Source: Yuukianura sp. NJ FZ-2021 (lineage: Eukaryota). Taken from it: DNA of 64,000 bases. The notes beneath the pieces are model-generated. The model ran no database searches and was not told where the DNA came from. It was given only the letters and a program-made list of their open reading frames with translations. The translations under genes were made by a program, and so were the position numbers. Below, piece by piece: positions 42,001 to 64,000 of this stretch (position 1 is the stretch's first letter; the number at the start of each line of letters is the position of its first letter). Where the stretch lies: NCBI GenBank assembly GCA_046563655.1, contig CM102289.1, positions 744,001 to 808,000 of the forward strand, written 5' to 3'.

Positions 42001-45000
42001 GAAACGTCAATCTAACCTAAAAAAGTTCAAAAAAAGATATCACTTGTACCGAGACTATTTCCACCGAATTTCTAGCAACATTTTTTAATAACTTTCTATT
42101 TTTGTGTTGCAGTCGCAGTGGAGTTGTGCGTGGCCGAGTTGTGACACCAAACGGAAGTGGCCTTATGGGCGTTCGGGTTTCTTCTACATCACCGTCGGAA
42201 CCACTCGGCGGTTTTACTTTGACTCAAGACGATGGTTGGTTCGATTTGATGGTCAACGGTGGCGGTGCAGTCGTGCTCCAATTTGGTCGGAATCCATTCA
42301 ACCCCAAAACTCGCACCATTTTCGTACCGTGGAACGAAGTTGTCGTGATTGACCGTGTCGTCATGGGAACCAACGACGACAGAACTTTCCGAACCCAGTC
42401 TTGTGACGCCCATGACTACGAAACCATGAAACCTGTTGTCTTGGCAACCTGGAAACACGGTTTCCAAGGAAACTGTCAAGGACCGACATCGAGCCTGATC
42501 TTACCCGAATCTCAAGTTGTTCAAGAAAGAATCCGAATTCCTGGCACAAATGTGCATTTGATGTACCATTCTTCACGGGCAGAAGGCTACAAAGCTACGA
42601 TCAAACTTCAACTGACTCCGGAATCCATTCCTAGCAGTTTGCGCCGCGTAACTTTGAAAATTACGATCGAGGGCGTTTTGTTTGAAAAAGTTTTTGAAGC
42701 GGATCCGAACATTCAGTACACTTTTGCCTGGAATCGACTCAATGTGTATCGTCAACGTGTCCATGGCATTGCCACGGCAATTGTCCATGTTGGATATACT
42801 TATGAAAATTGTGTCGACACAATCTGGACTGTGGAAAGCACGACATTGTCTGGACATGACATGACAATTTCTGAAATTGGTGGCTGGAATCTAGATATTC
42901 ATCATCGTTACAACTTTCATGAAGGAATTATCCAAAAAGGCGATGGATCAAACATTTATCTCAAACATAGACCGCCCGTGATACTCACAACGGTGGGTAC
43001 TGGCTATCAGAGACCTCTACATTGTGGCGAAGATTGTAACGGAATCGGAGCGAAGCAGAAACTACTGGCAGCAGTTGCTCTTGCTCCAGCATCGGATGGA
43101 ACACTTTTTATCGGAGATTTTAACTTGATCCGAAAACTGAATTTGGACGGAACCATTCAAACTCTTGTCCATCTGAAGTGAGTCAGCTGTTTTTCGAAAA
43201 CTTGAAAAAATTTGATTTTTTTTGGCGGGGTTTTTAAAAGTGTGTTTTTTTTGCAGTACAACTCGAGTGTCCTACCGATATCACATGGCTCTGAGTCCAG
43301 TGGACAACATTCTTTACATTTCTGATCCTGAGAGCCACCAGATCATCCGTGTCCGTTCGTTAGCCAATGACAGCCCTCCGATCGAACCGGAACAGAATTG
43401 GGAAGCTGTGGTGGGTTCCGGTGAAAGATGTTTGCCCGGAGATGAAGCTCATTGTGGCGACGACGGTTTAGCAAGAGATGCGAAATTGGCTTATCCAAAG
43501 GGCGTGGCGATCTCCGTCGACAACATTCTCTACTTTGTTGATGGAACAAACATTCGGAAAGTGGATCGGGATGGAATAATTTCCACTTTGATTGGAAACC
43601 ATCAACACAAATCTCATTTTACACCAATTCCATGCGAAGGAAGTCTCAAAGCAGAGGAGGTATTTTCAAAAACTTAAAAACTCAAAACTTTGTTTAAAAA
43701 GTATTCACACCTAGTAAGCCTCTAAATAAGAAACTAGATTACGACGCCCCTTTGAGTGGAAGTTTGTAGTTTTTTTAAAATGGGAGTGGAAGTTTGTCGT
43801 TTTTTTTTAAACGGGAGTGGAAGTTTGTCCTTTTTTAAAACGGGAGTGGAAGTTTGTCGTTTTTTAAAACGGGAGGTTCAGCCAGAATTAAAGAGGGTTT
43901 TTAATATTATTTTTAAAAAACGACAAACTTCCACTCAAAGGGGCGCAGTAATCTTGTTTCTTATTTAGAGGTTTAAGTGTACTTCGCCCCTTTGAGTGGA
44001 AGTTTGTCGTTTTTAAAGAGAGTTAAAGTGGGTTTTTAATATTATTTTTAAAAAACAACAAACTTCCACTCAAGGGGGCGCAGTAATCCTGTTTCTTTTT
44101 CTTATGTAAAGGTTTAGATGTAATTTTTTTTTGTTTTTGATTGTAGGTGCACTTGCGATGGCCAACTGAAGTTGCAATAAATCCACTCGACAACTCTCTC
44201 TACATCATAGACGATCATATGATCCTGAAATTGACCGATGACAACCGGATTCGTGTCGTTGGTGGGAGATCGATCCACTGTCCGGCCCCACCCGGTGGGT
44301 ACGATTCCGATTTAGCCACTCACGCAAGTCTCATTTCACCCCAGAGCATGGCTTTTGCACCGAACGGAAACCTGTACATTGCCGAATCAGATGGACAGCG
44401 TACCAGTCGTGTCCGGCTTATCACCACCAACGGAAGAATTTCACATTTTGCTGGAGCCGAATCCAAGTGCAACTGTCTAGATCCCGGTTGCTCCTGTTTC
44501 GATGACGACCACTACCTAGCTGCAACTGCCAAATTCAACACCATTTCTGCCGTTGCCATGACACCCGACGGAAATTTGCACATCAGTGACCAAGGCAACT
44601 ATCGACTCAGGACTGTCCAGGCACTCATACCGTCGTCAACTGCTCCAACGGACTCCAAAGTCTATGAAGTTTACTCTCCAGAGACTCAAGAAATTTACGT
44701 TTTCAATCGTTTCGGTCAACATGTTGCTACGAAGAACATTGTGACGGGAGAACGTGTTTACACGTTTCTCTATAACGTGAATATGTCCAACGGGAAGTTG
44801 AGTAGTGTAACGGATTCTGCCGAAAACAAACTGCATATACTCAGAGACTATTCACTTATAGTCAAGTCCATTGAAAACTCGCATGCCCAGAAGTTCAACT
44901 TGCGAATGTCACGGAAAAACATGCTGCATGAGTTCTCTACTCCAGAAGGACATAACATTACATTCAACTACCACACAGAGTCTAATGCCAACGGACTGCT

Positions 45001-48000
45001 CAAAAGCCGGCAGGAATCGACCGGTAAAAGTTCGGTTTACACTTACGACGAATACGGCCGTTTAGTTCAAGCCGTTTCACCGACTGGTCAGCTGTTACGA
45101 CTCGAATTTGAATTAAGCAAACGTGGCGCCAGAGTGCTCGTGACAAGAGATGAAGCTCTTCCAACTTCGCTGCTTATCAAAGGTTCGTCGGTATTTGAAC
45201 GACGCGGGAAATCAGAGCAAGTCGTATCGGTCGAACCGGACGGTAGCGTGAGAATAGCGTTTCCATGGGGACAAGCTCTGACGACTGAAACGATACCGTA
45301 TAATGTTTTGGGCGAAATCAGTCCGGTACTGAGCGACAGTTTTCCGGTACCGGGAAAGCAGAAGACCGAAGTTGGAGCCGAATTGGTGAATCGAGTTGAA
45401 TGGCGGTACATTACGAGAAAGGAGGGTCGTGGCAGGAATAAGCAAGTGATTCAAGTCGACAAAAAGCTGAGGGTCAATGGAGAAAATATGGTAACCCTGG
45501 AATACGACCGCGAAACGAAATCCGAACTCGTTTTTATCGGAGACCGTGTGGAAATTCTGAACGTGACCTTTGACCCTCTGGGGAGACCTTTGCGGTGGGC
45601 ACCAAGGTACGTACAAAACAAAACTCCATTAATTGAACTACGCCTCAACCTCTAAATAAGAAACAAGATTACTGCGCCCCTTTGAGTGGAAGTTTGTCGT
45701 TTTTAAAGACCCTCTTCAACTCTGGCTGAATCTCCCGCTTTAAAAAACGACAAACTTCCACTCAAGAGGGTGAAGTAATCCTGTTTCTTATTTAGAGGTT
45801 GAGTTGTGCCTAAAAATACCTAAAATTTGAGCTCTATTGTAGAATTTACGGTATTTTGAATTTTTCAGTTTCAATTTTGCCGCCGTGGACATGGAGTACG
45901 ACCGATTTGGCAGACTTGTCGGATGGAAGTGGGGCAGATTAAGTGAAACTTTTGAGTACGATCGTTCTGGAAGGTTATCTCATCGCCAGCATGCGGATGG
46001 CACTGCGTCGACTTACGTTTTTGTGGACTCCTTCACTACCCTGGTGAGAAAACGTTTTTAAAACGTTCAAAATTTCGATTTTCCATGCTAGAAAGTGGGC
46101 AAAATACCTAACAATTTCTGACAGTCATTGTTAGCCACATAGTGAATTCAGACCGTAGTATAAGGTAGAATGACGATTCCTCAGAATCGTCGGTTACGTT
46201 TTGTAAGCACAATTCTGAGGATTAGTTGATCTCCATATCGCGTTTGAATCCACGAGTGTCGCTGAACCTTACTTCAACCTAAAAACTTTATTCTGATTTT
46301 CCAATTTCTGATTTCTCTGACTTTTTGTCTGACCTAGCCTCAGAAAATGAAAACAGCTGGGGGGAGTGACTATTTGTTGGAATATGACGGATCCGGCGCC
46401 TTCGCTTCTTTGACAACTCCAAGAGGCCATATTCATACGTTTGGTGTTTCTACTTCAGTTGGTCACTACGAATTCAACTACAAATCTCCGAGTAGCCGTG
46501 ATGCATTTCGAGTTCAGTTCAACGACTATGGTCACGTTACGTCCGTTCTGTATCCATCCAGCGGTGGTCGCATCACGTACGTCTACACTGCTGGTGACAA
46601 AGTTGAAGCAATTGTGGCTGGACTAAGGACGATTCAGTTTACTTATCACGAAGGACTCGGATTAGTGAAAGTGGCAGAAATTGAACAATCTTCATTCGAG
46701 TGTAAAATTGAATACAAGTATCACGGTGGAATGATGAAAGAAGAAAAGGCCAAGTTCGGTCCGAAGTCTGGTCTGGCCAATACGCAAGTCAAATTTCAGT
46801 ATGATGGGAACGCGAGACTTACAAACGTGGAAACTGAAATTGGCGGCAAATCTGTTCAGAGCTTATCAATCAAGAAGACAGGAAATTCTGGACTGCTAGA
46901 AAGTGTCAACGATTTGAGATTTATTGAACCTGGAGTGGAAAATCCATTCAATCGCTCAATTGCTTCCGACGTCGCCAAAACGTTTTCGCGAGTTTTGGAA
47001 CGTGATGAAGTAGGAAGATTTTTACGTCAAATGATCGTCATCCGCGGAAATACTGTGTTTCGACTGGAATTGACGTACAATGACCGTGGAAGAATTCAAG
47101 AACGGAAGATGACTATTGTAAATTCACCTTATGTTGACGAAGTCCAGTACACTGCTGATGGTCAAGTGTCGGAGGTCACGGGCTCAGGTCACTGGAAGTA
47201 CGTTTATGACGAAAATGGAAACGGAATTCAAATGATGGAACAGCGCGAAAAAAGTTCTTTGATTTATGACTCTGGTGATCGTGTGATCCAAGTTGGCGAA
47301 TTACTTCGCTACACATACGACGCACGCGGATTCTTGGTTCAACGCGGAAATGAAAAGTTTCAGTACGACGATAAAGGCTTTCTGTTACACGTCGTCAAAA
47401 ATCAAGCTTACCGGATTTGGTACGCCTACGATCACCAGGATCGACTCGTGTCTTGGAAAGACGATCAAGGAAACGTAACGCAGTTTATTTACGCGAATCC
47501 CGAAAATTCACGTCTTATTACCCACGTCCATTTTCCCGCCACTTCAAAAACTATGTTGTTCATCTACGACGAATTTTCGACGTTGATTAGCCTCGTTCTG
47601 ATTGGTTCAGAAGGTGAAAGTGCCCGGTACTACGTCGCAGCTGATCAAAACAAATCTCCCCTTGCGTTATTCACTGTGCACGGAACTTTAGTCAAAGAAA
47701 TACACAGAACTCCGTTTGGAAAAGTAGTTCGATCGAGTGCTCCCGAAATCTATCTTCCTATTGGCTACTACGGTGGAATCGTCGATGGACATACCGGACT
47801 TGTTTTTCTTAACGGAAGGCCGTATGATCCCACAATTGGGCAGTGGATGACCCCCGACTGGGTTAACTTACCCGCCACCCTCCGAACTCCCACAGACGTG
47901 TTTACGTATAGATTTAGACGTAATGACCCCATCACCCCACCCCATCCCCCAATGACGTCACGCATGAACTCACTCAGTGATTGGTTGAATCTGTATGGAT

Positions 48001-48937
48001 TTCGACCAGAGGCCATTTTTGGCCAGAAGTACACTCGACCGACTTTCTTCGAGCCAAAAGTGGACAGTTCCTTGGGGCCAGAGTTTGGCACTGCCAGTGC
48101 ATTGGCATGTACAGCAGAAACGACCAGTTCTGGCTACCTCACGATGGGCTTCCAGCAGCAGTCGAGACTCAACCCAGAGAGGATTCTAACTAAAGTGCCA
48201 GAAACTGAGTTTTTGAGCAAATTGGCCAATAAGCGATCTCCATTCGGTACCGGTTTGTTGCTATCCAGACTCAAAGGGGGCAAAACTCTTGTGAGTACGG
48301 TAGAAAACAGTGTTGTGCAGGGCGTCCTCACTTCAGTTCTCAACGGTTCGTTGTTTGTGGACTTCCGATCGAGCCATGCCAGTGCCTATCACTTTGTCAA
48401 AGACAATCCGCTCAAACTCCGAGACGATCTTGAAGATCTGAAACGACTCGGCGGATACAACGTTTCGCTTCATGAAGCCGAAAACGGCATCAAGGTAACC
48501 GTCAAATTTTCCGGAAAACTTACAATTTTGAGCGAATCCCGCCGAAATTTAGAAATTTTGAAGATTACTGATTCTGAATTTTTGTATTCCAGGAGCTGAA
48601 ACTGTCCAGTGGTGACACGAGCATAACCGTTCGGTATGGTGCGGATGTTGACGAAGAACTGTCACGACTGATCAAGCATGCTCACCGGAGAGCCATTGAA
48701 CGTGCGTGGGAGGAGGAACGGAAGTACATATCGATGGGACTGGATGGGAGACGACCGTGGACAGAAGAAGAGAAGGAACAGCTTCTGCTCAAAGGCGTCG
48801 TCCATGGTTACCGGGCAACCGAATTTTTGAGTGTCCATGCTTTCCCGCAACTCGCAGAAGATCCCAACAACATCCTGTTTCTGAGAGATTCCCGGCGGAA
48901 ACGCAGAAACAAATCAAACAGTCGTCGAAGACACTGA
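1..48937 (+). CDS. Ten-m: Teneurin-m (Ten-m/Odz), multi-exon, 5' end outside window
   Basis: Phase-consistent exons: <1-87, 29111-29509, 34774-35041, 35171-35355 (TM helix [23 protein letters not shown]), 35947-36144, [36289-37584 cassette], 37794-38062 ([27 protein letters not shown]), 38189-38223, 39728-39942, 40374-40568, 40676-40885, 40987-41095, 41189-41415 (EGF repeats), 41489-41696 ([12 protein letters not shown]), [41892-41918], 42113-43177, 43257-43659, 44147-45606 (NHL propeller), 45869-46043, 46338-48494 (YD/RHS shell), 48593-48937 (Tox-GHH-like, TGA). Motifs match recalled Drosophila Ten-m. Confidence 0.95.
853..945 (+). mobile_element. tRNA-derived SINE-like element
   Basis: GGATAGCCTAATTGGTAGAG (A box), GGTTCGAGTCCC (B box), then a T-run; no intact cloverleaf. 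Confidence 0.55.
4615..5030 (+). repeat. Degenerate minisatellite, core CAACAGAAAC
   Basis: The core recurs at roughly 20-nt spacing. Confidence 0.8.
6056..6297. mobile_element. hAT-type MITE
   Basis: TIRs CAGGGATGTCAAGCATAT / ATATGTTTGACACCTCTG with a perfect 8-bp TSD ATAATCAG (6048-6055, 6298-6305). A degenerate duplicate of the right end follows at ~6320-6411. Confidence 0.85.
7200..7442 (+). repeat. Degenerate minisatellite, core AGAACAGTAGCA (~22 bp)
   Basis: About 10 visible units. Confidence 0.85.
10601..10710 (+). repeat. 18-bp tandem repeat AAAGTGGTAGGTGGTAGG
   Basis: About 6 units; explains the spurious VVGGRK ORF. Confidence 0.85.
11339..11771. mobile_element. Degenerate TIR element rich in TCCGTCC motifs
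   Basis: Imperfect terminal inverted repeats (GGACT..GACGGATA.TAAT / ATTATTATCCGTCC..AAAGTCC) and many internal TCCGTCC motifs. Confidence 0.5.
12925..13310 (+). repeat. ~120-130-bp tandem repeat x3
   Basis: GCGGGAGG..CAGTGATTTT..TTTTTACATAAAGTTTTAGC..AATACGCGC repeated three times. Confidence 0.8.
16615..16894 (+). repeat. Direct repeat copy 1 (~280 bp) flanking the GH25 gene
   Basis: aaaaagtacaaagaagtgaagatggcacag...gacacttgaagcagaaactg aligns end to end with 18902-19180. Confidence 0.93.
17046..18303 (-). CDS. Secreted GH25 muramidase (Ch-type lysozyme), 3 coding exons, ~290 aa, nested antisense in the Ten-m intron
   Basis: Exons 18303-18042, 17739-17407 and 17323-17046 join with phase-1 GT-AG introns. 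Signal peptide [20 protein letters not shown]25 motifs [29 protein letters not shown] (catalytic DxE), [17 protein letters not shown]. Confidence 0.88.
17790..17945 (-). mobile_element. tRNA-derived SINE-like element in GH25 intron
   Basis: A-box-like GATAGCTCAAGGGTCAGAGC and B-box GGTTCGAATCCC, plus a tail TTCAC..TCAAGCCAATGT shared with the copy at 33612-33752. Confidence 0.65.
18527..18593 (-). promoter_or_regulatory. TATA box + arthropod initiator and short 5'UTR exon of the GH25 gene
   Basis: Minus-strand TATAAA at 18593-18588 and TCAGT Inr at 18562-18558, about 30 nt downstream. Donor GTAAGT at 18526; acceptor TTTTCAG ending 18312, 8 nt before the ATG. Confidence 0.6.
18902..19180 (+). 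repeat. Direct repeat copy 2 (~280 bp) flanking the GH25 gene
   Basis: Same-orientation diverged copy of 16615-16894, with scattered substitutions and small indels. Confidence 0.93.
21858..22022 (+). repeat. ~39-bp tandem repeat
   Basis: ACTTACAGTTCTGGCGTACTTTTCGTTAGTATGTAAC, about 4 units. Confidence 0.75.
24957..25490 (+). repeat. ~41-bp periodic array with conserved core TAGTTACTCCCTCCGTTTTTGT and variable spacers
   Basis: About 14 copies of the core. Confidence 0.85.
28810..29085 (-). repeat. Tandem pair (~145 bp) of B-box-containing SINE-like units just upstream of a Ten-m exon
   Basis: GGATTCGAACC..ACCCC..AGC.TACCA..GCCTTATACCACT.TG.CAGTTTCC occurs at ~28874 and ~29017. Confidence 0.7.
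33612..33752 (+). mobile_element. tRNA-derived SINE-like element, same family as 17790-17945
   Basis: GATAGCCCAACGGTTAGAGCACTTCC..GGGTTCGAAAC..TTCACTCCGTCCTCAAGCCAATGT. Confidence 0.65.
35608..35726. mobile_element. Short palindromic MITE-like hairpin
   Basis: TCGTTCTG..ACCGCCAAGGAAATT / AATTTCCTTGGCGGT..CAGAACGA. Confidence 0.65.
38362..39480. mobile_element. TA-flanked TIR element (Tc1/mariner-type MITE) with internal 41-bp tandem repeats
   Basis: 32-bp TIR CCGCTATAGGTCAGAACTCTACTCCARAACTT (1 mismatch), with TA on both sides. Confidence 0.85.
38841..39240. mobile_element. hAT-type MITE nested in the TA element
   Basis: TIRs CAGTGTTGCTGGAT / ATCCAGCAACACTG with a perfect 8-bp TSD GTGACCAC (38833-38840, 39241-39248). 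Confidence 0.9.
43715..44100. mobile_element. Palindromic MITE plus adjacent partial copy
   Basis: TIR CCTCTAAATAAGAAAC..CGCCCCTTTGAGTGGAAGTTTGT / reverse complement, spanning 43715-43975, with internal GAGTGGAAGTTTGTCG repeats. A second partial copy lies at 43985-44100. Confidence 0.8.
45644..45803. mobile_element. Palindromic MITE, same family as 43715-43975, opposite orientation
   Basis: CTCAACCTCTAAATAAGAAAC...GTTTCTTATTTAGAGGTTGAG, with ~60-bp arms. Confidence 0.85.
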
Positions 48938-49586: not shown

Positions 49587-50032
49587 ATCTTCGTCAAATT
49601 TCATCAAATTTTCTCTGTAGAGTCAAAATTTTGGACTGGGAAAACTGAATTCTCAAACTTTTAAAAAAATTCTGAGTTGTACTTTGCTCTACTTGGAACG
49701 AATTGAATGCTTGACTTATAAAAAAAGTCGTACTAAAAATGTCTAAATCCAAAAACCTGTTAATTATTTTCTCAAATGCTGTTTTTATTTTGTGTACGAA
49801 TGTGTATTACGTTTAAACTTATGTTTTAATGACTATACGTTACGAGAGGAAGCTTGCGTTCATTTAGCATTAAGTGCTTTTACTGTATTTTGACACCTGA
49901 GACGACTAATCTTAAACTAAAGCTTAAATCTAAAGAAATAGTGGAAATTGCACTTAAGGGGCGAACTGCTGCATTTCTGTTAAACGAGCTTTTTTGGTAT
50001 TAGAATTAGTATTTACTTGTAGAATATTTTAC

Positions 50033-52283
50033 TTAGGAAGATTGTATCGACGGAATATACTTCGAAAGAGGCGATTGTTTAATCCAGCAATAAGTCCTTC
50101 CAGAGGAACGGTGGTATGAATGTTCTGCCGTAGTAATGGCTGAATCGTGGTACTTCATCAATACTTCCAGATAGTCGTCCTTCTGAAACTACAAATTATA
50201 TTTTTATTTACATATGTTCTTCTTTTTCTGAAATGTTAGGACTAAGTTTTGAAAGGGAGTCAAACTCACGTCATCAGAATCCTCCTGATCGAAAACGAGT
50301 TTTTGAAGGCGTCGGAGTTGCCCAGTTTGGCTGGCGTAAATAACGCCCTTCCAGCACTCAATGCTGCCGTTGAAGAACTTCAAATGTGTCAGCACTAGTT
50401 AAAAAAAAAACAACATTTGTTAATACACGCACTTTAAAATGATTCATTCATCCATAAAAAATTAACATTGTGTTTTAAAATTTTATGCATACCCGGAAAA
50501 TTGCAAAAGGAGTCAATTGAATCCGAAGTTTTCCCAGGTTCTAGGAGAGACTTGGTAATCATGCTGTGTGAGATGTATTGAGCTCCATTAGTTAGGTGGT
50601 TCCAGTGTTTAAGTTGAAGGTCACGGTCCCCATCAGGTCCACTAGCATCGGAGTCGACATAAATGTGCAGTTTCTGGACTTTTGGAAACCGGAAAATCCC
50701 TTCTAATGTTGTAGAAGCCACGTACAATTGAGTAACGTTGGGGAGTATTAATGGCCAATGCTGACGTTCCTGCTCCGTTTTCAAATAGATTTTTGCGAAT
50801 TTTACATTTGGAAAAATGCATCCAGCGAAGATGAATTGATCGGTTGTTCCACCATAAATGCAGTCGAGCGTTGTGAGGGCTGGAAATTCCATCGGTTGGC
50901 GCAAGGCGACAGAATGGAATGGGAAATAGAACGCCAAACATGTAATGTTTGCGAGGGAAGGGAGAGGAAGTGTAATTGGACCAAAACGGTGCCTAGGGCC
51001 ATTGCCGTCCATTGGGAAGTCCACACACTCCGCACATTCCACAACAAGTCTGCGCAACGATGTCAGTTTTTGAATCCAATTTGAAATAATTTCCCCTGTT
51101 TGTGGTACGCTTCCAAAACTGGGATCGCAGGGCCTCAAGAATAATTCCAAATCCAGGATTTTGCAATTTGTTGAAATTGCAACCAAGTTTTCAAGTTCAT
51201 ACATATTCAAAGCCGGAAAATGAAGAAGCACGGTCAACTTTTGGATGAGGAGGGGTCCTTTGATTCTGTAGATCTTGTCTATGATGTTTGGAACAAAAGC
51301 TGGGTATGATGTGTCATGATCGTGTATATCTCCACAATTTTGGATTGAAAAGTTCTTAAGATTTGGAGCTTTTTCCAAAAGATCCAAGAGACGGGAATCG
51401 TATTGGTCTTCAGAATCGTAGCACCCGATGTTGAAGTTGATTGTTTTTAAACTTTTTAGTACAGGGATTTCCACATCCACAGCTTTGGACATTTCCTCTT
51501 CCTCTTCCTCAAATAGCACTGTCACAACTGGGTACACGATTTCTTCTACATTTTCGAATTTGTCAAATAGGATTTGGATGTTGTTTAAAAGTAAATTCTC
51601 GTGTGGCGGTTGAGGAGTGACGCCGATCCAACACCAAATTCGCCAGGATTTCACAATGCTTCCAAATTTGACACAAAACTCCTCCAACGGCTGCCCGTAC
51701 GTCAAGAGATTTTTGTTAAATCCAAACTCTTGGAACGGAACGACTGTTTTGTTTCGTTCAAACACAGAAATAAATTTCACAATGTCCGAGTCTTCCAGAA
51801 AGTTCACCCGAAACAACTTTGGGAAGCATGTCGTTGAAAGTTGATTGAATCGGTGGTTCACCAGGCGTAACTCTGGTATTTCTTGTTTTCTCAAACAGCC
51901 GATTATTTGAAGCAGAATCTGAAAGACAAGATTGTTGTTAGTAATCACATAGATTATTTATGTCAAATCGGAGTTCAAGATTCAATTTTACGCTGAGAAG
52001 TCAACAAGAACGTTTCTAATTTTAACTTTTTTTAACTCCAAATCTTGTTCAGGATTTATTTGGAAACTCATTTTGACATGCTGAGGCTTGTCGGAAATTC
52101 TTGTTTCGTTATGAATACGTTATGATGATGAACATTAAAATAACGTTATTCAACGGAATGCAGATTTAAAAAACAGTGGCTTCAAACAAACGTTTAATTA
52201 TTGGCTTCCAGCTCGAAGGTTTAGTTTTGAATTTAATAAATTAGGAATCAAGTTGACCTTACTTCATTTGGAATGGAATCCAT
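50033..52283 (-). CDS. F-box / LRR-like protein (may be the 3' part of an EF-1beta fusion)
   Basis: Exons 52283-52263 (MDSIPNE), 51918-50493, 50394-50270 and 50182-50033 (TAA). The spliced N-terminus MDSIPNEILLQIIGCLRKQEIPELRLVNHRFNQL fits the F-box consensus; it is followed by LxxL-type repeats (LKSLKTINF, APNLKNFSI, FPALTTLD, LPNVTQLYV). Confidence 0.75.
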
Positions 52284-52430
52284 CGTGGCAGTGCAAGACA
52301 AACGACCGGCATCACGAAGTAGTTCAACGAATGAACTCGATGTAGCAGACTGATTCTGTACTTCATTGTGATTACTTAACATTCCTGGAGTAGATGGAAA
52401 ACGAACCCCACTTCTTAAAGCAGAAAAACT

Positions 52431-53565
52431 GATCTCCACAGAACGCACAGCTTCTTCCAGGTCTAATAAACAAAAAATCAATTCAGCCCGCAAAAAAAAT
52501 CATACGGAAAATCTGGTTTTGTTGCTCACTCTTCATATCTGTCTCGTCATTCCACGGTTTGACGACATCTAGGATGACGTTTGACTTGGCAATGGACTCA
52601 GGCTCTTTGCTCTTATTCTCTGCACAGGCTTTGAGACGATCTTCTCGAATCTTGGCCGCCTCGGCATCCTGCGAACCATAAATTACAGTCTCAATTCTCC
52701 AGGCAATCCTTTTATAAAAAATATTACCTCTTCTTTATCCGATGCAAACAAATCAACATCTTCATCCTCATCAGCAGCACCGTTATTGACAACGACAAGA
52801 GCAGCTGAAAAAGTAGCAGCACATGCTCCTGATGCCCCGAAGCTGGCTTTCAATGCTCCGAAGCTCTTGATGTGATTGTACCATCGGAGGACATGAGGAT
52901 GTGAAGAATGCGGAGTGGATTTGATGGCATCAAACGTTTTGGTATCAGCACTGCTCGGAGAATACCTGTTCAGAATCAGCCAGTTGTTAATCTGTTGGAA
53001 ATTCCAACTTGGGGAAAAATTTTACTATCGTGGACCATTTTTGAAAATTCTGAAAATTTTTCTCTGAAGTCCCTATGGACCCCTGATAGTAAAAAGCAAA
53101 AAAAAAATTTCCGGAAATCAAAAAAAAACTAACCTAACCTAACCTAACATCGCGCCTTCGGCGCGGGTAATTGACCAGTGACTCTTTTGTTTTTGACTTT
53201 TTTTGAAAAATTCGTTCAGAATCGTGTTCAGCATCTTCAAATTAGTCTAAAAACCGATTTTCATCGATATCGGGGAAAAAAATATTTTTTGAAATTTTGA
53301 AAAAATAATTTTTTTCGTAAAATTTTTTTGATTTCCGGAAAATTTTTTTTTGTTTTTTACTATCAGGGGTCCATAGGGACTTCAGAGAAAAATTTTCAGA
53401 ATTTTCAAAAATGGTCCACGATAGTAAAATTTTACCCAACTTGGAATTCATGTGCGAAAATTAGCAAATTCTTAATCTAAATTACCCTTCGACGTAGGAG
53501 TGGGACTTGAGATGTTCATTGAGTTTAGCCAATCCAGCAGCTGTTGAGACGTCACCGAACGACAT
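52431..53565 (-). CDS. eEF1B: Elongation factor 1-beta copy, truncated in the GEF domain and open in frame into the F-box gene
   Basis: Exons 53565-53486 ([27 protein letters not shown]), 52965-52728 ([23 protein letters not shown]), 52668-52530 ([20 protein letters not shown]) and 52462 onward ([10 protein letters not shown]). Homology stops before the usual DGLxWG motif. Confidence 0.85.
53000..53448. mobile_element. Foldback/MITE with ~130-bp TIRs in EF-1beta intron 1
   Basis: 53000-53129 and 53321-53448 are near-perfect inverted repeats. The centre carries (CTAAC)4 and a CGCGCC-TTC-GGCGCG hairpin. Confidence 0.85.
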
Positions 53566-53769
53566 GTTGCAGAGGAAAGGAAATTAAATGAGAATAAAAT
53601 TTTCTCTGCAGGCTCAAAATTTTAAAACAATTTCTCAAACTTTGGGACGGATTGGATACGATGGCCGGCTGTTTTAGAATTCCGGCTTGGAATCAGAGAA
53701 TTCCGTGAATTAGACACAGCCGTACAGAAATATACACGGGATACACGGGTGGCGTCAGGCAAAAGGAAA

Positions 53770-54420
53770 ATCTTTGTATCCGCACAGTGTAACCACACTC
53801 GCGGCTAAATTTTGTGGCTACACTTAATACTTTATGTTGGATTAATTAGCTCAAGGTGGCTACAGAAGTTGCCACTTAGGTGTAACTACCTCTTATTTCC
53901 AGCGGAGATAGCAGGGGGTGGCTACACTGTGTGGATACAACTACGTTCATTAATGCTTAGCTTCCCTTCAGAAATATGTCGGTTGATATAAGGAATACCC
54001 ACCGATGTTGCAACCGCAACATGTACCCACCCTGACTATGCTTGTGGCTACAAGGTAAGGCTACCACTTGTGTCGCAACTCATGGGCATGATAGCCCAAA
54101 CTATGCTGAATTAAAATGGCAACATTAGGTTGTCACAATGCGCAGCCAACAGCAGTACACAGAAGTAGCTACGCCAAGTGAGTACAGACATGGTTGTATA
54201 CCTCACTCCAATCTTGCATTCCTGTTTGTTTAAAAATTCTGGGTGAAGTAAGATTTAACCAGCGCTTATCACAAACTGTAGCCAATTCTACATTTTGTGT
54301 GGTTTCAATCGGTGGCTACACCTTGGTGACAACATTTTAGCCAGCCTCGCCTTACAAAGCCAAATCTGAAGTGGCAACATAGTAGGAAAGCCATGTATTC
54401 TGGCTGCGAAGTGACTACAG
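53770..54420. repeat. GTGGCTACA-motif-rich repeat with an internal inverted repeat
   Basis: TTGTATCCGCACAGTGTAACCAC (~53774) pairs with GTGGCTACACTGTGTGGATACAA (~53918). The motif recurs to ~54420. Confidence 0.55.
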
Positions 54421-54523
54421 AGCAACGGACGATGGTCGGTAAACCTTCTACCAACCCAAATTCCGGTAAGAGAGAGCGTGCTCTTCCTCATTGCTGAGTT
54501 GGCGTTCACTTGTTTTCCGTTAG

Positions 54524-55740
54524 CTTGTGAGCTCCGATTTTTCGGAACTTTCCGCAAACTGTCCAAGAAGAGGAGTTTCTGGACTCCTGGACACATACAA
54601 GAACATCCTCCTCCACTTTCTGGAAAGTGAAAAGCTCAAGGACGATTCCGAGTAGCAAGTAAGTATCAACATTTCATTTGAAAGCTTTTCAATATATTTG
54701 AAGTTAAAAATAAAATCGTATCTGGTTGGATTGGAATGTAGGTTTTGCAGGCAGCTTTAGCATGGCTTATCACTCAATTGCTCATCGTCGCATCGTCGTC
54801 ACGTATTCCAAGTGCTGAAGACTATTCGACTCGCTTTAATTCCTTCGAGACTCCTAGAACACTGTGTGCAACAAATCCAAGATAAATCAATCCAAATTGC
54901 TCTAAAAGAGGCTTACAGAAGGACTTTACTTTTACGCAGATGAGGTTCCCTAGTTTGTCTCATTACGCAAACACGCAAAAGGTACGCAACTTTAGATTAA
55001 GTTGCGCAATTTTCAAAATTTCAAGACGTTTTTTGTTTTTCCAGCGCGAATAAGTACATCTACCTAATTGGAGGATCACGCAAGCAGTTGGGACATGGGT
55101 GGAAGCAACTGTCCGAAAGCACACTTTCAGCGTGTGACTGATTTGATACATTTCAGTAAGCATTTTCACCTTGTTACATTCATCTTCAAGCAATTTTTGA
55201 CGAAAAGTAAAAATTTCGTTTTTTTTTAAGAAAAACGTGGACGAGCATTGCACCTATGAACATTGGACGAATTACACCTGGTGTAGCAGTTCTCGGTAAA
55301 TAAGGCTACTTTACGACCAACGATTTAGTGTCAATTAAATCGTTAAAGTGTTGGTTAATTTCTTTGTTTGTGCCAATTTTTCAGAAGGACTAATTTATGT
55401 CGTCGGCGGAGAGCGAGAGTCAAAGATCTTAGCAAATAGAGAAGTAAGGATTCAAATTCAGAAGATTTTAGGTTGAGCGATTAAGTTGTACAATTTTTGT
55501 CACTTTGTTGCAGGTTTACAGTCCGCAAGAGAATACTTGGACACGAATAGAACCGATGATCATTCCCCGGTGTGCTTTTGGCCTCACGACGCGGGAAAAC
55601 GAACTGACGAATGGATCTTTTATCTTTGTTTTTGGCGGTTGGGTGGGAGAAAGAATTGGCGTGTCAATTGAAAAGTACGTTTGGTATAGAAACGAGTGGA
55701 TCATGATTGGAGAAATGGAAGAACCACGGTGCGGAATGGG
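54524..55740 (+). pseudogene. IPP: Fragment of BTB-BACK-kelch gene (IPP/KLHL27-like), disrupted
   Basis: BACK-like ILLHFLESEKLKDDSE*Q (TAG 54653-54655) and VLQAALAW. Kelch repeats APMNIGRITPGVAVL, GLIYVVGGERESKILAN, PMIIPRCAFGL, FGGWVGERIGVSIEKY, EPRCGMG. Has stops and frameshifts, no BTB start visible, and ends mid-exon. Confidence 0.75.
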
Positions 55741-58700
55741 CTGGTGGCTGGTTTACTTACTACGGACTTCTTGGACATCGTCTGGAAGGCCAAAGTGTCT
55801 GCTCGATATGCCCAACTTCAAGTGACCTAGAATGAGGTCGAAGCAGTTCAAGTTTTTAGAGAAATCATGCCGATCCTGGAGGGCATCAAAGATCCAGTTT
55901 GTTTTTACTTTTATTGCCAATGCATCGGCGTATCTCCCGAAATTGGAATGGGTAGAGGAATTGCTACAATTTGGGCTCAAAAGAGTCGAAGACTGCAGTG
56001 GAACGCTTTTTGGAAAAAGGCTTCTGAATACAGTGAAGAAGTTGTACACTTTTCAACAAGCTGTGCCTGGAGGAGGGATTGAGCGCTGGAAAGAATTCAG
56101 CTTGCCAAACACTTCAATGTTTCTCCAGTGCTGCCAATTTCTGCAAAAGGTAAGCAGTTTTCAGATTTCACACTTCAGTTTTTCTGTCTTAGTTTTCAGA
56201 TTTAAGTTTTCAGAATTTGATTTTCTTTCATACATTTTTTTGATGTTTTTGTTTATGTTTTTTAGCTTCTGTTCAATGAGTGTGAAATCATCTGGTTGCG
56301 ACACTGTGACGAATTCCTTCCTGAAATTCAACTGTCTCAATGCGCCCCATTTTATCGAACTCTCTTTTAGCATCGACTGTACTCCAACTCGGCAGTATCT
56401 CTCTTCAATACTATTTTCCCTCATGCATTAGACAAATGTGAGCATAATGCTGCTGGAGATGGTGACGGGGGATCCAAGAACCCTGCTTTGGTTTACCTTT
56501 TGACCAGTCAAATCAGGTATCTGGAGGGGGAGATAGCTTGTCCAAAGGAGGGGATTGACTTTGTGGAAGTTCTGGTCAAGGCAGTGGAAGAAGAGGAGGC
56601 CAAGTTACAGGAGGCAAGTGATTTGAATGAATCAAGACATTTGGAACGTGCTGCCATTTGCACAGAGATACTGGACAAACTAAGAACAATTCTCCAAGCA
56701 TTCAACGAACTTTCGCAACTTTACTCCAACCACAAGATTCGGATTCTCTTTGACAAGTACTTGGACGTAAGTAATCGATTTCTAAACGTTGTTACTATTT
56801 GATTCCCTTGTGACGAATTACTTGTGTAATTACTTGATTACTGATGTAATTACATAAATACTAATGATGAATTAATTTTAGGAACCGAAGTTAGATGTGA
56901 TCAACTTGATGGTTGGTGTGATTTGGGGAAAAGAAGAAGTCGAGTACTTCCTGAAGGATTTTTTGTTTCCGTTTGCGAAGCGCCATGACCTCAACGTCGA
57001 TGAAATCATTGAGCAGCACATTGGAGTAAGTTCAGAACATATTTTATTTATAGTATTTATTTATATATGTTGTATTTACATAATTTATTTATATATGTTG
57101 TATTTATATAATTTATTTATATATTTTCAGTTCCTTGCCAATGAAGTGACTTACTACATGCGAGCAGAGTCAATTCCATTTGAAAATCGTGTTGTCACGC
57201 TAACAGACAACATCGAGTCGACCATCGTGCGCCTGCGCTGTGTGCACGCCTTGTCCCAAGCATGGCCAGTCCCTTGGCGTCCTCCGATGGAAGGAATTGT
57301 GGCCAGAGCTTTGCAGTTGAGCGTGGAAGGGTATCCAGAAGCAGCTATTTTGCAAAAGACGATTCAAATTATCAAAGTTCAAGTGCCTTACAGATGCCTT
57401 CGCTACAAGTACAGCCTCTCTGCCTCAAAATGTGTCCATGGATACCATGTAGTTGTAAGTTTTCAATTATTTTTTATCTTTATCCTGCGAGAGAAGTTTT
57501 TTATGGTCGATGCAAGTTTAGATTTGTGTTGGACTTGGACTCCAACGCTGCTGTAGGAATTGAAACTAAAGCTGGCCTAAGACAGTTCGTCCTTGATTCA
57601 CCCCTCCAATTAGATTAACATTCTTTTTCTTTTCTTGAGTCTGTAAATACTCTGTAAAAACTCATTCTGAGTTTTGTGGCATTATGCTTGTCCATAATCC
57701 ATTTCCAATGTCCTTGATAGATACATTTTGTGGACATTGACTGTGGAGAGAGATGCCAACGTTGCAAAGTCAATGACTCTGCTTGTCTATTCAGTCGGTT
57801 TCTTGCTCTTTCCCAGTCAACTTCCAAGGAATTCTAGAAAGTTGTAAATAGTTTTTCCAAGATTTTTCCAACTTCATCACGAGAATAGAAAAGTGAACAG
57901 GTTAGGTTTTAAGTTAGGCTAATCTAAGTGTTAGGCTAAGGTTTAAGGTTAAATCTAATTGGTTTCTGTTTCTGTGTTTCAGCACACGATCAAACGGATT
58001 TTGAAAGCTGACAAACCGGAAGCCTATAAAGATTGTTTGGAACTTATCAAGCATACTGGAAAATGCGATGCAGAGGGAGTCCGGAAGTTGAAATTGTGGT
58101 ACGAACTTTCTGAAACTGCAAAACCGTTGGACAAAATTGTGGAAACCGATTTTTCAGAAGAGTTGGTTCAACGATTGCTCAACCGAATTTTGGAACAGTT
58201 TCGACAGGTTAGCCAAAATTTTTGGGTTTCTTTATCTTTTCATGTGAATTTATGAAAACTGAGCAAATTCTTGAAACTTTTTGAAATTTTTAGGCTCCAG
58301 ATCTGCTCAACAAAGAAAATGAACCGTGGGAGAGATACACCGAATGTGGAAAACTGCTTGCCAATCGAATACAGGATCACAAGGCGCTTCAGTTTTTCCA
58401 ACTACGCAAGATTCTCAAAAATTTTTGGTCCACTGACATGCTCTACTCCAAGGAATATCCGTTCAGCGTCCTTCGCATTTTGTTGCAAGGTATGACAAGG
58501 TCAAAGGTCAAGTTGATCTTGACACATAACAAAGATTCAAAAAATTAAAAAAAAAAGTTTTGAGATTTTGCCTTTTCAAAAAAGTTTTATGAATGATTTC
58601 ATTTTTTCAGAAAATCGGGATGCGTCTGGACCAGAAATGATCCGCCTGTGTCATCGATTGGCTCAGATCAGCTTTTCTCATGTCAAGGACATTCTACTCA

Positions 58701-59055
58701 CAGCAGCAAGTTTCTTCTGTAACGATGGTCTCCGTGGCTCTGAAATGACCAAGATCTGGGAAATTGTGACCGAAATTGTGCGACTTCCGGGAAATTTTCA
58801 TGCTGAAGGAGACATTGTTCCTGGCGAAGGAGTTGCTCTGGCTAGACACTTGGCCAATTTCATATTCCATTCCAACTTCGTCTGATGCTGAACTGGATAC
58901 ACTGGAAGCATTTTACAACTTAATCTTCTCATCGTTCGAGACTGAAACGGCAATAATCGAGCCAATACTAAACGTCATGTCTATACTTTCAATGTTCAGA
59001 GAACTGCGAGACAGAGAGATTCCACTGGAGACTGCATTTCTCAACTTCTACTTGG
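55741..59055 (+). pseudogene. rod: Rough deal / kinetochore-associated protein 1 (KNTC1) internal fragment, disrupted
   Basis: Spliced peptides IVWKAKV, KKLYTFQ, IIWLRH, FAKRHDLNVDEII, AWPVPWRPPME and IKRILKADKPEAYKDCL follow the order of the recalled KNTC1 mid region. In-frame TAG at 55828-55830, frameshift near 55896, and further lesions. Confidence 0.75.
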
Positions 59056-59128
59056 GTGAGTACTCACTCTTTTTTGTTACTTCTATCATACAAGTTCTAG
59101 TGATTTTTGAGTTCAATTTCTTTTCCAG

Positions 59129-61470
<2,342 letters not shown>

Positions 61471-61551
61471 GTAATCAAAACTTCATTTTCAAAATTTTGA
61501 TTTAAAAAAAAACAAAACAATGTTTTTCAAAAATTTTTTTCAACTTTGTAG

Positions 61552-62265
61552 AAGTTTGGATCCAAGGAAGGAAGGGAGCTACTGGACTACTGCCGGAATT
61601 GACAGCTTTTGGAGAATCGCTGCTCCGATTCGGAGACACTGAATTGTTCGCTCGAATATTTTCAGCGATTCACGTGGAGTATTTGAATCAAGCATCTTAC
61701 GCTCCTCTGAAGATGATGGCTGAGAGGATTCAAGGCGCCGCGGCGGTGAACCAGCTCAAGAACACTTTGCTTGCAAATATCGACCAGTATCAAGTGGAAG
61801 AGACCAATTCGTAAGGAGGAATTCTACGCCGATGCATCGGCTGTTGATTTGAAATTCCAAAATTTGAATTTTTGCTAAACTTGTGATTTTTGTTTGGTTT
61901 GGCATAGACGTGTTGTGAATCTGGTCAAAGCCTTACAAGCTGCTGGACTGCAGTTGAACGCTTACGCTCTGCGACAAAGGAGCAAATTGAGGCTAATTGC
62001 TAAACTAATTGAAATGAACAAGTATCCTCTAGCGTCTCAAACACAAACTGCTCTGGTCTTCAGCTTCCGTGATGGACCGTCATGGTCACTCATCCTCAGA
62101 GAGTATATTGCTCAAGCATCAACTGCCGAACTCAAGACGCTGCTAGAATCGCTGAAGAAAATCAATGAGCTTTGGGTTGTTCCGGAATTCAAAGAGGCTT
62201 GGCTCAAAGTTTCCGAAAAATTTCCAAACTTCAGGCACATTTGTCCCATTCCGCTCGGGAACTGA
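61552..62265 (+). pseudogene. rod: Rod/KNTC1 C-terminal fragment (Rod_C region) ending in TGA
   Basis: Two exons (61552-61810, ~61908-62265). LKTLLESLKKINELWVVPEFKEAWLKV...ICPIP resembles the recalled KNTC1 LWQVPYFSKAWQRV...CP motif. Confidence 0.65.
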
Positions 62266-64000
62266 ACAAAACCGAACATTCTCAGCAAAGCTAAGTTGTA
62301 TCAGCGCAAGATTGATGAAATCAGGTTCAGCAACTTGTCTAAAACAAGACTATTAGCTTCACATAAGCTACTTTAAGATAAGTATAGATTAGGATTAAGA
62401 TTCAAAGGGTTATGCTAGGTTACAACAGCAAAGATTTCTTTTGCTAACCTAACAAAAGGCGTTGAAATTGGAGTTGCAATTTGCAACACGATACATAACA
62501 TAGTTTTACCCAAGGTTACTATAGCAACATCTTCTTTAAAGACCAACCTTGGTTTTACCCGAGAAAGTTGCAGCAAAAGAGATGGCATCGCGGCAAAAAC
62601 TTGAATCGAATGCAAGTCTATCTCCGGGTTTCGTAAAACTATTTTTCCGTTCCTCATTCATAAATAAGCAAGGAAATACGCTAAAGAGTCACCTGGTTAA
62701 TGATTCGTCCGCGATGCCACTCAATTTTAATTATGTCCACGCTACTAGATCAATTTTAGTTATCTTTCTGGTGGTTTTTAGTCACACTCGAGTCTAAAAT
62801 TTTAGTATGTCCCTTGTTAGTCTTCTGGAGACGAATGTTTTCGACATGCTGAAGAAGACTATTAATACGGCTTTGTCTGTCTGTCACATTTTAGGATTGG
62901 TTATTGGTTGCACTTAAACATCCCCGAATTTTTTAAAGTCCAACCCCGCTTTGAAACATGGTTTTGAACTGCTTGAAAAACGCAAACGTTCGAAAATTCT
63001 AAATGGCGCATCATACTGACCCTGGGAGGTGTGGCAGGAACTTATTTCCGCTCTCTTTTCTCGCCGTTTCCTTTTTTTGTATTTAGTCGACATTGGAGGA
63101 TCCGAAAGTAAAAGTTCACAAAGTTGTATTATGTACACCAAATATAAATATTAGCAGTGGAGCCCAAGAGATCCGCTCTCAAGTAGCGAATGCGGCAGTC
63201 AAATTGGGTGAATGTCACTCCTTGGTCACCAGTCATCAACTAAAGCGAAGTCCCATAATTGATCAACCGTGATCGGCTTTTCGTGCTGGTGAAAGCAAAG
63301 ATTAGAAACAATATGGCTACATACAATTCATGCACACAAAATGCGAGGCATGCCGGCACTCAAATTTATGAACAAAGCTGTAGCGCGTGAGCTACATTGA
63401 GAATGAAAAACACAAGTTCTCGTCCACTCTTTTGAAGCTTTTGACGTTGTCATCCCCTTCTGATTTTAAACTAATTCTGAACAAAAACTAAAAAAAGTAG
63501 AATGGCATTACTCATTGTCATTGGCATCTTATTTTCTTAGTAGGTGTAGGAAATACAATTTGTATTTCCGACTGTCAAGGCACCTTGACTTTTCTCGAAG
63601 TGATTTAGGCTCAAGATTACCTTCGAAGATGTCATGGATTCTTTGATTGAATCCGAGTAATTGTTTAATGAGTTTTCTGGTCTTGTTTTAATGGTCTTCT
63701 GTTTTGTTTCTAAGTGCGTATTTATCAATTATGGGGAAAATTAGAGAAGTGTGGAGTAAGTACTTTTGTCGAAAAGAACTACCTGACTCGTATGCGCTTA
63801 TTAGCAATTATGTATTAGTACTTAACTTGGTATATGTCTTTGTTTCTTACAAAATCGTTTGCTTTTGTGCTTGATTCTGGGCTTCTAAGTCGATGACTTA
63901 TTGAATTGTGTTCCTATTCTCATTTTTCATGGTACGTTCTCATTTGTTCATGTGATTGTTTTTTGGTTTTTCCTCTGGAATCCGCAAATTCCGCTTTTTG

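Follow-up and report, generated by a model that had tools for sequence, protein, structure and literature searches.

How do pieces of several genes, all with their introns, come to lie next to each other on one strand of non-coding DNA? This question is raised by a locus in the springtail Yuukianura sp. NJ FZ-2021 (GenBank assembly GCA_046563655.1; 98.7 Mb in 22 contigs). It was found in a stretch of 64,000 nucleotides, here called the window (contig CM102289.1, referred to as C7, positions 744001-808000; positions given without a contig are those of the window). The locus is situated 5.6 kb 3' of a gene whose translation we take to be that of a teneurin, and combines pieces of three donor genes, IPP, Rod and Cul1, with parents on C1, C2 and C5 respectively. 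We consider it likely that the locus is a real, dead and nested pseudogene mosaic, made by serial templated insertions through microhomology-mediated break repair at a permissive site.

An initial annotation had described a one-strand mosaic of four gene fragments in the order IPP, Rod, Cul1, Rod. Pieces, order and strand were as described, whereas the number of donor genes is three and the two Rod pieces represent a single copy; a further piece of 316 bp within Cul1 exon 7 (59646-59961) had been overlooked. The mosaic consists of the following parts:

54531-55768, plus strand: IPP (BTB-BACK-kelch) fragment; donor C1:3696522-3697737, 87% identical
55744-55771, plus strand: IPP/Rod junction zone, with a 7-nt local insertion, the final IPP bases up to 55768 and then a 3-nt filler
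55772-59062, plus strand: 5' part of the Rod/KNTC1 copy, codons 434-1187; donor C2:598077-594689, 90-91% identical
59059-61472, plus strand: Cul1 fragment in Rod intron 11, codons 195-711; donor on C5 in two versions, 91-96% identical
59646-59961, plus strand: insert of 316 bp, located in Cul1 exon 7 and flanked by a 4-nt target duplication; donor C10:757852-758033 and 764674-764795
61471-62525, plus strand: 3' part of the Rod copy, with the rest of intron 11, exons 12-13, the stop codon (62263-62265) and about 260 nt of 3' flank

A genome search with the interval 54400-62400 returned 26 matches, and all 19 candidates were scored. Open parent models were obtained by an automatic splice search for Rod (1390 aa in 13 exons, C2), IPP (579 aa in 10 exons, C1) and Cul1 (800 aa in 13 exons, C5); they are heuristic predictions from the genome sequence. 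Since open parents exist on other contigs, the mosaic pieces are not the only copies of these genes. Including the 316-bp insert, the donors are spread over four contigs. Pfam detected Kelch, Cullin (E 8e-25) and Rod_C in the mosaic pieces and ARM_KNTC1_1st in the Rod parent (E 4e-16). A match with 67% identity to the kelch parent bears the name actin-binding protein IPP, and the best named homologues of the Cul1 exon tested were springtail proteins (Allacma 74%, Orchesella 72%, Folsomia 69%). The Rod parent aligned end to end with Orchesella KNTC1 (1417 aa), with 30.6% over residues 2-1390. A word search with Rod exon 5 and a PDB search gave no match, and a HMMER search gave 13 matches; a search of the genome with the Rod_C profile gave no match anywhere, controls included, and is hence uninformative. 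Rod/KNTC1 of springtails is short, with 1390 aa for the protein encoded at C2:593890-599803 and 1417 aa for that of Orchesella, compared with 2034-2059 aa for the Bemisia matches; much of the C-terminal half appears to be missing.

The IPP, Rod and Cul1 pieces lie on the plus strand, retain every intron that they span and have no start codon, in agreement with the initial view that these are DNA-level copies rather than retrocopies. The IPP piece corresponds to parent codons 154-431; it starts within exon 3, ends within exon 8, spans five introns and contains two stops and six frameshifting indels. Its join to Rod is placed at 55768/55772 and not at about 55740, as first proposed; the residues LVAGLL, read as Rod at that time, are encoded by the 7-nt local insertion and by IPP in another reading frame. 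The 3 nt at the junction are a filler or, alternatively, a 4-nt microhomology that mutated later. The join lies in mid-exon and out of frame, and the IPP frame ends at a stop (55823-55825). The 5' part of Rod covers exons 5-11 and the first 7 nt of intron 11. Overall, the Rod copy comprises codons 434-1390, ends with the C-terminus and stop codon that had been annotated and carries two stops (55828, 56368) and two frameshifts.

Alignment of the two Rod stretches (55772-59062 and 61471-62499) with C2:598077-593649 showed 89-91% identity. The stretches are contiguous in the parent, and C2:594689-594691 is common to both sides. The two Rod pieces are therefore one copy, into which Cul1 was inserted, 7 nt into intron 11 and with a duplication of about 3 nt of Rod. 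The Cul1 piece runs from intron 4 to the middle of exon 12 and thus contains exons 5-12, the eight-exon internal piece of the initial annotation. Besides the 316-bp insert, across which Cul1 is contiguous, its lesions comprise a deletion of 28 nt and an insertion of 6 nt; disrupted frames had correctly been reported for IPP, internal Rod and Cul1. The insert derives from a single C10 stretch, since split by a long terminal repeat element; we rejected its identification as a short interspersed element on this ground, though its right half is repeated. A nesting of the 316-bp piece in Cul1 and of Cul1 in Rod is thereby shown. Splicing from Rod to Cul1 would be out of phase, with a stop within 10 codons, and at the Cul1-to-Rod join a donor of phase 0 meets an intron of phase 1. 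No open fused frame with a start codon extends across the IPP-Rod or Rod-Cul1 joins, and a fused protein from the mosaic is not possible.

These junctions resemble those of break-repair patches. Donors were left in place at distant loci, as the open parents on C1, C2 and C5 demonstrate. Short microhomology or filler without long homology was found at the Cul1 ends (4 nt on the left, within the splice donors of both genes, and 2 nt on the right), between IPP and Rod (3-nt filler) and at the left end of a neighbouring EF-1beta::F-box-like module described below (about 10 nt, imperfect). The acceptor continues across the insertions with small duplications of about 3 nt for Cul1 in Rod, 4 nt for the 316-bp piece and 30 nt for the module. 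An 11-nt insertion near the right edge of the Rod 3' part repeats a 9-mer of the flank. We propose that several separate copy-and-paste templated insertions took place in the non-coding DNA 3' of teneurin during repair of double-strand breaks or replication forks. The pathway would have been microhomology-mediated end joining, synthesis-dependent strand annealing (SDSA) or template switching, and the pieces would have arrived in the order IPP, Rod, Cul1, 316-bp piece.

The amount of decay fits the nesting. Non-synonymous differences drop with nesting depth from IPP (30/631) to the window branch of Rod (42/2080) and Cul1 (11/1191), with Fisher tests giving p 5e-4 for IPP versus Rod, 0.02 for Rod versus Cul1 and 4e-7 for IPP versus Cul1. 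All pieces would be young, with a neutral decay of at most about 5% for IPP, 2% for Rod and 1% for Cul1.

Part of the stretch is contained in five public runs, all consisting of DNA contigs from two studies, four of which were aligned. The contigs are short, and a junction was counted as bridged from 31 nt upwards. Three of the runs were made from a single sample; at several teneurin sites it disagrees with the assembly at full depth, and it is probably not the assembled individual. Among the matches listed, a contig covering 54178-54584, with 23 differences and 16 gaps, bridges the left outer junction by 53 nt, and two bridge the left junction of the module by 123 and 101 nt. A contig starting at 62513 carries 13 nt of Rod flank, less than the bar, and the right junction was not counted. 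A joint of 59062 to 61505 in two runs could be taken for a mosaic without Cul1; as the Rod parent fits equally well, it was not used. The check for a chimeric assembly thus speaks for the left outer junction, while the three inner junctions have no bridging contig among the matches listed. Over 56487-56798 (312 nt), a public contig with a depth of 384 showed 3 mismatches to the window Rod, compared with 14 for the assembled C2 copy and 13 for the C1 copy, a closeness that fits other alleles as donors.

Several points weigh against serial break repair, and the inner junctions that no listed contig bridges are among them. For the IPP::Rod block taken as a unit, we found neither an empty site nor a target duplication. 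The microhomologies, just 2-4 nt, are short and might be chance matches. Class 2 patch insertions do not typically have target duplications (PMC5110952). In public contigs, three of the six frameshifts in IPP are missing at full depth, and the piece may appear older than it is. In addition, the IPP non-synonymous count includes changes on the parent side, and the age gap between Rod and Cul1 is weaker after allowing for allelic changes.

The closest competitor is a single catastrophic event with multiple switches, either fork stalling and template switching/microhomology-mediated break-induced replication (FoSTeS/MMBIR) or joining outside the chromosome, that made IPP-Rod-Cul1-Rod at once. Common strand, adjacency and short microhomologies are compatible with such an event, complex insertions by iterative switches have been described (PMC5120786; PMC11724301), and multi-switch events do occur in this genome. 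C4:2365888-2367204 contains three pieces of the window's teneurin joined out of order, one join with a 3-nt microhomology, which is a template-switch pattern; this block, at first considered an ancient paralogous region that could serve as empty site, proved to be another mosaic. However, the return to Rod within 3 nt of the exit point better suits a later insertion, and the unequal non-synonymous load of IPP and Cul1 also speaks against simultaneous origin. We therefore regard a single event as unlikely and retain serial insertion.

Capture by a Helitron or a Pack-MULE/CACTA element had been suggested initially, and co-oriented fragments with introns as well as an element resembling a miniature inverted-repeat transposable element (MITE) 80 nt to the left would suit cargo of a Helitron or Pack-TIR element (TIR, terminal inverted repeat) whose ends have decayed. 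Gap-filling within TIR elements leaves microhomology too (PMC8277862). Our scans for Helitron ends and TIRs were run without a positive control and could miss decayed ends. For HLE1 Helitrons, a 3' hairpin was present at 0 of 13 CTRR sites (62260-62930, plus strand; without positive control); on the minus strand (54130-54540) two of four sites had a hairpin, neither ending in CTAG/T and one within the MITE. A strict Helitron scan gave its first candidate only at 72287 (extended window coordinates). The left junction of the mosaic is not A|TC, as for a 5' TC end inserted between A and T, although an element end could lie further out. For inverted repeats of the HLE2 type (about 12-17 nt), the longest repeat between the left flanks and 62495-66000 had 11-12 nt (E 0.12-0.63). 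No MITE-related sequence was found to the right of the mosaic up to extended position 81999, nor terminal repeats of transposable elements on both sides, and no direct repeat between the outer flanks indicates a target duplication around the whole. An apparent 10-kb TIR pair downstream turned out to be an inverted fragment (90%) of an NDUFV1-like gene (C7:815128-815580), the gene itself lying 10 kb downstream; the name is our assumption from its translation, for which Pfam gave no match.

The mosaic unit is single-copy in the genome (19/19 candidates scored). Common orientation, first seen as a signal of capture, is expected by chance for three pieces in 1/4 of cases, and the adjacent module lies on the opposite strand, so that co-orientation does not exceed chance here. 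Pack-MULEs and animal Pack-TIRs (PMC8277862) and the Helitrons HLE1/HLE2 (PMC11417382) resemble the mosaic in carrying intron-containing host fragments from other chromosomes with breakpoint microhomology, whereas the mosaic lacks flanking element ends, has no target-site duplication (TSD) around the unit and is not amplified. The cargo of Pack-TIRs, by comparison, measures 224 bp in the median and comes mostly from neighbouring DNA (PMC8277862). Cargo of a transposable element is accordingly very unlikely.

An RNA template was considered as well, since each of the three pieces stops within its gene or shortly past it (rough joint chance 0.41 x 0.30 x 0.18). It was rejected: there is no intron loss in IPP, Rod or Cul1 and no A-tail at 62525, marks expected of a retrocopy or a class 1 templated sequence insertion polymorphism (TSIP). 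It is further disfavoured by a Rod copy on C1 that extends far past the gene and by a stretch at the C7 end with two genes on opposite strands. The mosaic does not qualify as a Helitron, Pack-TIR, retrocopy or functional chimera. What remains of the proposed gene-capture or exon-shuffling hotspot is a local cluster of captured gene pieces; productive exon shuffling is contradicted by the out-of-frame IPP-Rod and Rod-Cul1 joins.

Former function, as paralogs or as a working chimera, could explain the low ratio of non-synonymous to synonymous divergence (dN/dS). Comparison with the parents gave dS/dN of 0.182/0.030 for Rod, 0.138/0.049 for IPP and 0.126/0.009 for Cul1, a dN/dS range of 0.07-0.36. 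Neutrality was rejected for every piece (p 5e-4 to 2e-17), a pattern unlike that of old pseudogenes, and 41 of the 42 splice sites checked retain their dinucleotides. On the other hand, the pieces have neither start nor promoter, their joins are out of frame, and their synonymous divergence equals or slightly exceeds that between alleles. The two C5 versions of Cul1, A and B, which served as allelic yardstick, differ by dS 0.079 and dN 0. They are located in an inverted duplication (C5:10.42-10.74 Mb; at least 55 kb, 96% identity) with a subtelomere-type mosaic copy at its centre, probably two haplotypes of one contig end joined in the assembly. Public contigs differ from a single-copy teneurin exon at 20/810, 31/909 and 19/793 nt, with an upper proportion of synonymous differences of 0.10-0.15; third codon positions account for 15 of the 20 listed sites that were checked. 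The C4 teneurin mosaic has the same synonymous excess as the pieces studied here (14/116 versus 9/373, one piece measured). The donors were probably other alleles in a very polymorphic species, and copying from such alleles, with synonymous divergence near the allelic level (about 0.08-0.15), would give low dN/dS without selection on the copies. Former function is thus highly improbable. In a species this polymorphic, dN/dS of 0.07-0.36 in young pseudogenes copied from other alleles is a trap when functional duplicates are called.

An assembly or library chimera from alternative haplotypes deserves hardly any credence: the pieces do diverge from their parents like alleles, the inner junctions are unbridged among the matches listed and the assembly seems to contain two haplotypes of one contig end, but Rod and Cul1 each exist in three distinct versions, the pieces contain stops and nested target duplications, and contigs bridge the left junction by 53 nt (from a different haplotype) and that of the module, in two cases, by more than 100 nt.

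Filler-DNA gene movement in grasses, of which Wicker et al. 2010 is reportedly the original paper, is one of the systems to which nested templated insertion at this locus can be compared. Such SDSA patches near a transposon or between direct repeats bear genes and lead to non-collinear fragments and pseudogenes (PMC3445842); they are known from plant genomes rich in transposable elements, in contrast to a 99-Mb arthropod genome with four nesting levels. Distant templated insertions have 0-20 nt of microhomology or filler and leave the donor in place (PMC11724301; class 2 TSIPs, PMC5110952). They share with the mosaic distant copy-and-paste, more than one fragment per site and inheritance, whereas the pieces described here are 0.3-4.4 kb long, contain introns, are nested serially and show small target duplications. 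Class 2 TSIPs, by contrast, are characterised as free of TSDs and mostly derived from RNA. Interchromosomal insertions by replicative template switching (PMC5120786) similarly involve segments of other chromosomes, microhomology and templated bits at junctions, although these are large, single-event and associated with human disease, and the present pieces are small and of differing apparent age. DNA-level partial duplicates are also common in C. elegans and Drosophila, where chimeras are proposed to arise by secondary fusion (PMC3449122); unlike these, the springtail mosaic has no open fused frame. No springtail report of such mosaics was found in the part of the literature that was searched.

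To the left of the mosaic lie the module mentioned above and the MITE-like element:

49603-49632, plus strand: left copy of a 30-nt direct repeat, the target duplication of the module
49626-53592, minus strand: EF-1beta::F-box-like module, which begins 27 nt ahead of the ATG and corresponds to a portion of a repeated family, of which at least four more long copies exist (84-86%)
53594-53623, plus strand: second copy of the 30-nt direct repeat, on the right of the module
53755-54450, no strand assigned: degenerate MITE-like element (approximate ends), about 80 nt left of the IPP piece

The direct repeats of the module match at 26 of 30 positions, compared with 22 for the best of 2876 random non-coding pairs, and a MITE lies within the module at about 53001-53448. 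Both arms of the element at 53755-54450 are left of the mosaic, which is therefore not enclosed. The four other long copies of the module all continue past the right end of the window copy in common sequence, and the two that reach its left end also share sequence beyond it. The EF-1beta::F-box fusion hence predates the window site and was not made here by a common process, as had been supposed; delivery of the module to this site, though not the fusion, may share its mechanism with the mosaic. Palindromic MITEs nearby could possibly act as fragile sites behind the clustering of events. C6:4174100-4174667 matches the EF-1beta part of the module only and is a candidate for the EF-1beta parent gene.

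Further mosaics were observed in this genome. C4:2377331-2381002 contains decayed pieces of the NDUFV1-like gene, which is located 30 kb further along C7. As C4 carries teneurin pieces and, nearby, pieces of this C7 gene, the window neighbourhood is a donor as well as an acceptor. The far end of C7 (C7:10173300-10183299) is a subtelomeric mosaic, amplified in the vicinity of numerous contig ends, of NIF-phosphatase, Hsp70-family, RRM, V-SNARE and L7Ae/L30e pieces; the NIF-phosphatase, Hsp70-family and RRM pieces lie on one strand and the V-SNARE piece on the other. A background control (24001-43900) had 39 of 449 candidates scored and hence gives no insertion rate. A wider reading, which we hold to be doubtful, is that capture is unusually frequent and strand-biased, with kilobase gene segments pasted serially into earlier ones at donor-and-acceptor hub sites, mostly in one orientation, and with dead copies archiving alleles gone from the parent locus. 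Archived alleles, absent now from that locus, would make dead copies look as if under purifying selection. The bias could stem, for example, from microhomology lying in splice-donor motifs, which is the case for the Rod/Cul1 join, or from selection against antisense copies of essential genes. The window mosaic makes no protein; its value lies in documenting break-repair copying in full, with four levels of nesting and the source of each piece located. Should the genome as a whole contain mosaics at the frequency suggested by this locus, the C4 pieces and the C7 end, the species would offer a natural system for rates and strand bias of germline templated insertion.

Additional observations concern Rod and the surrounding genes. 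A second, independent Rod copy is a 5'-truncated pseudogene at C1:3853662-3857871 with eight frameshifts and 87-88% identity to the window Rod; its left break in exon 5 is about 160 nt from that of the window copy. The two copies are not sisters, as they share no lesion and differ from each other as much as from C2. Intron 6 of the C2 gene contains an insertion with a putative resemblance to tRNA (L021:7920-8040) that is absent in both Rod copies. Rod intron 8 (467 nt in the parent; window 57560-57900) is 94% conserved in the window copy and on its opposite strand resembles a decayed coding stretch, which only the three Rod copies carry. The teneurin coding sequence (47000-48474) shows very high allelic divergence (2.4-3.4% of sites), partly clustered in a 75-nt block. 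Minus-strand open reading frames at 17046-18327 may belong to a gene of the GH25 lysozyme type.

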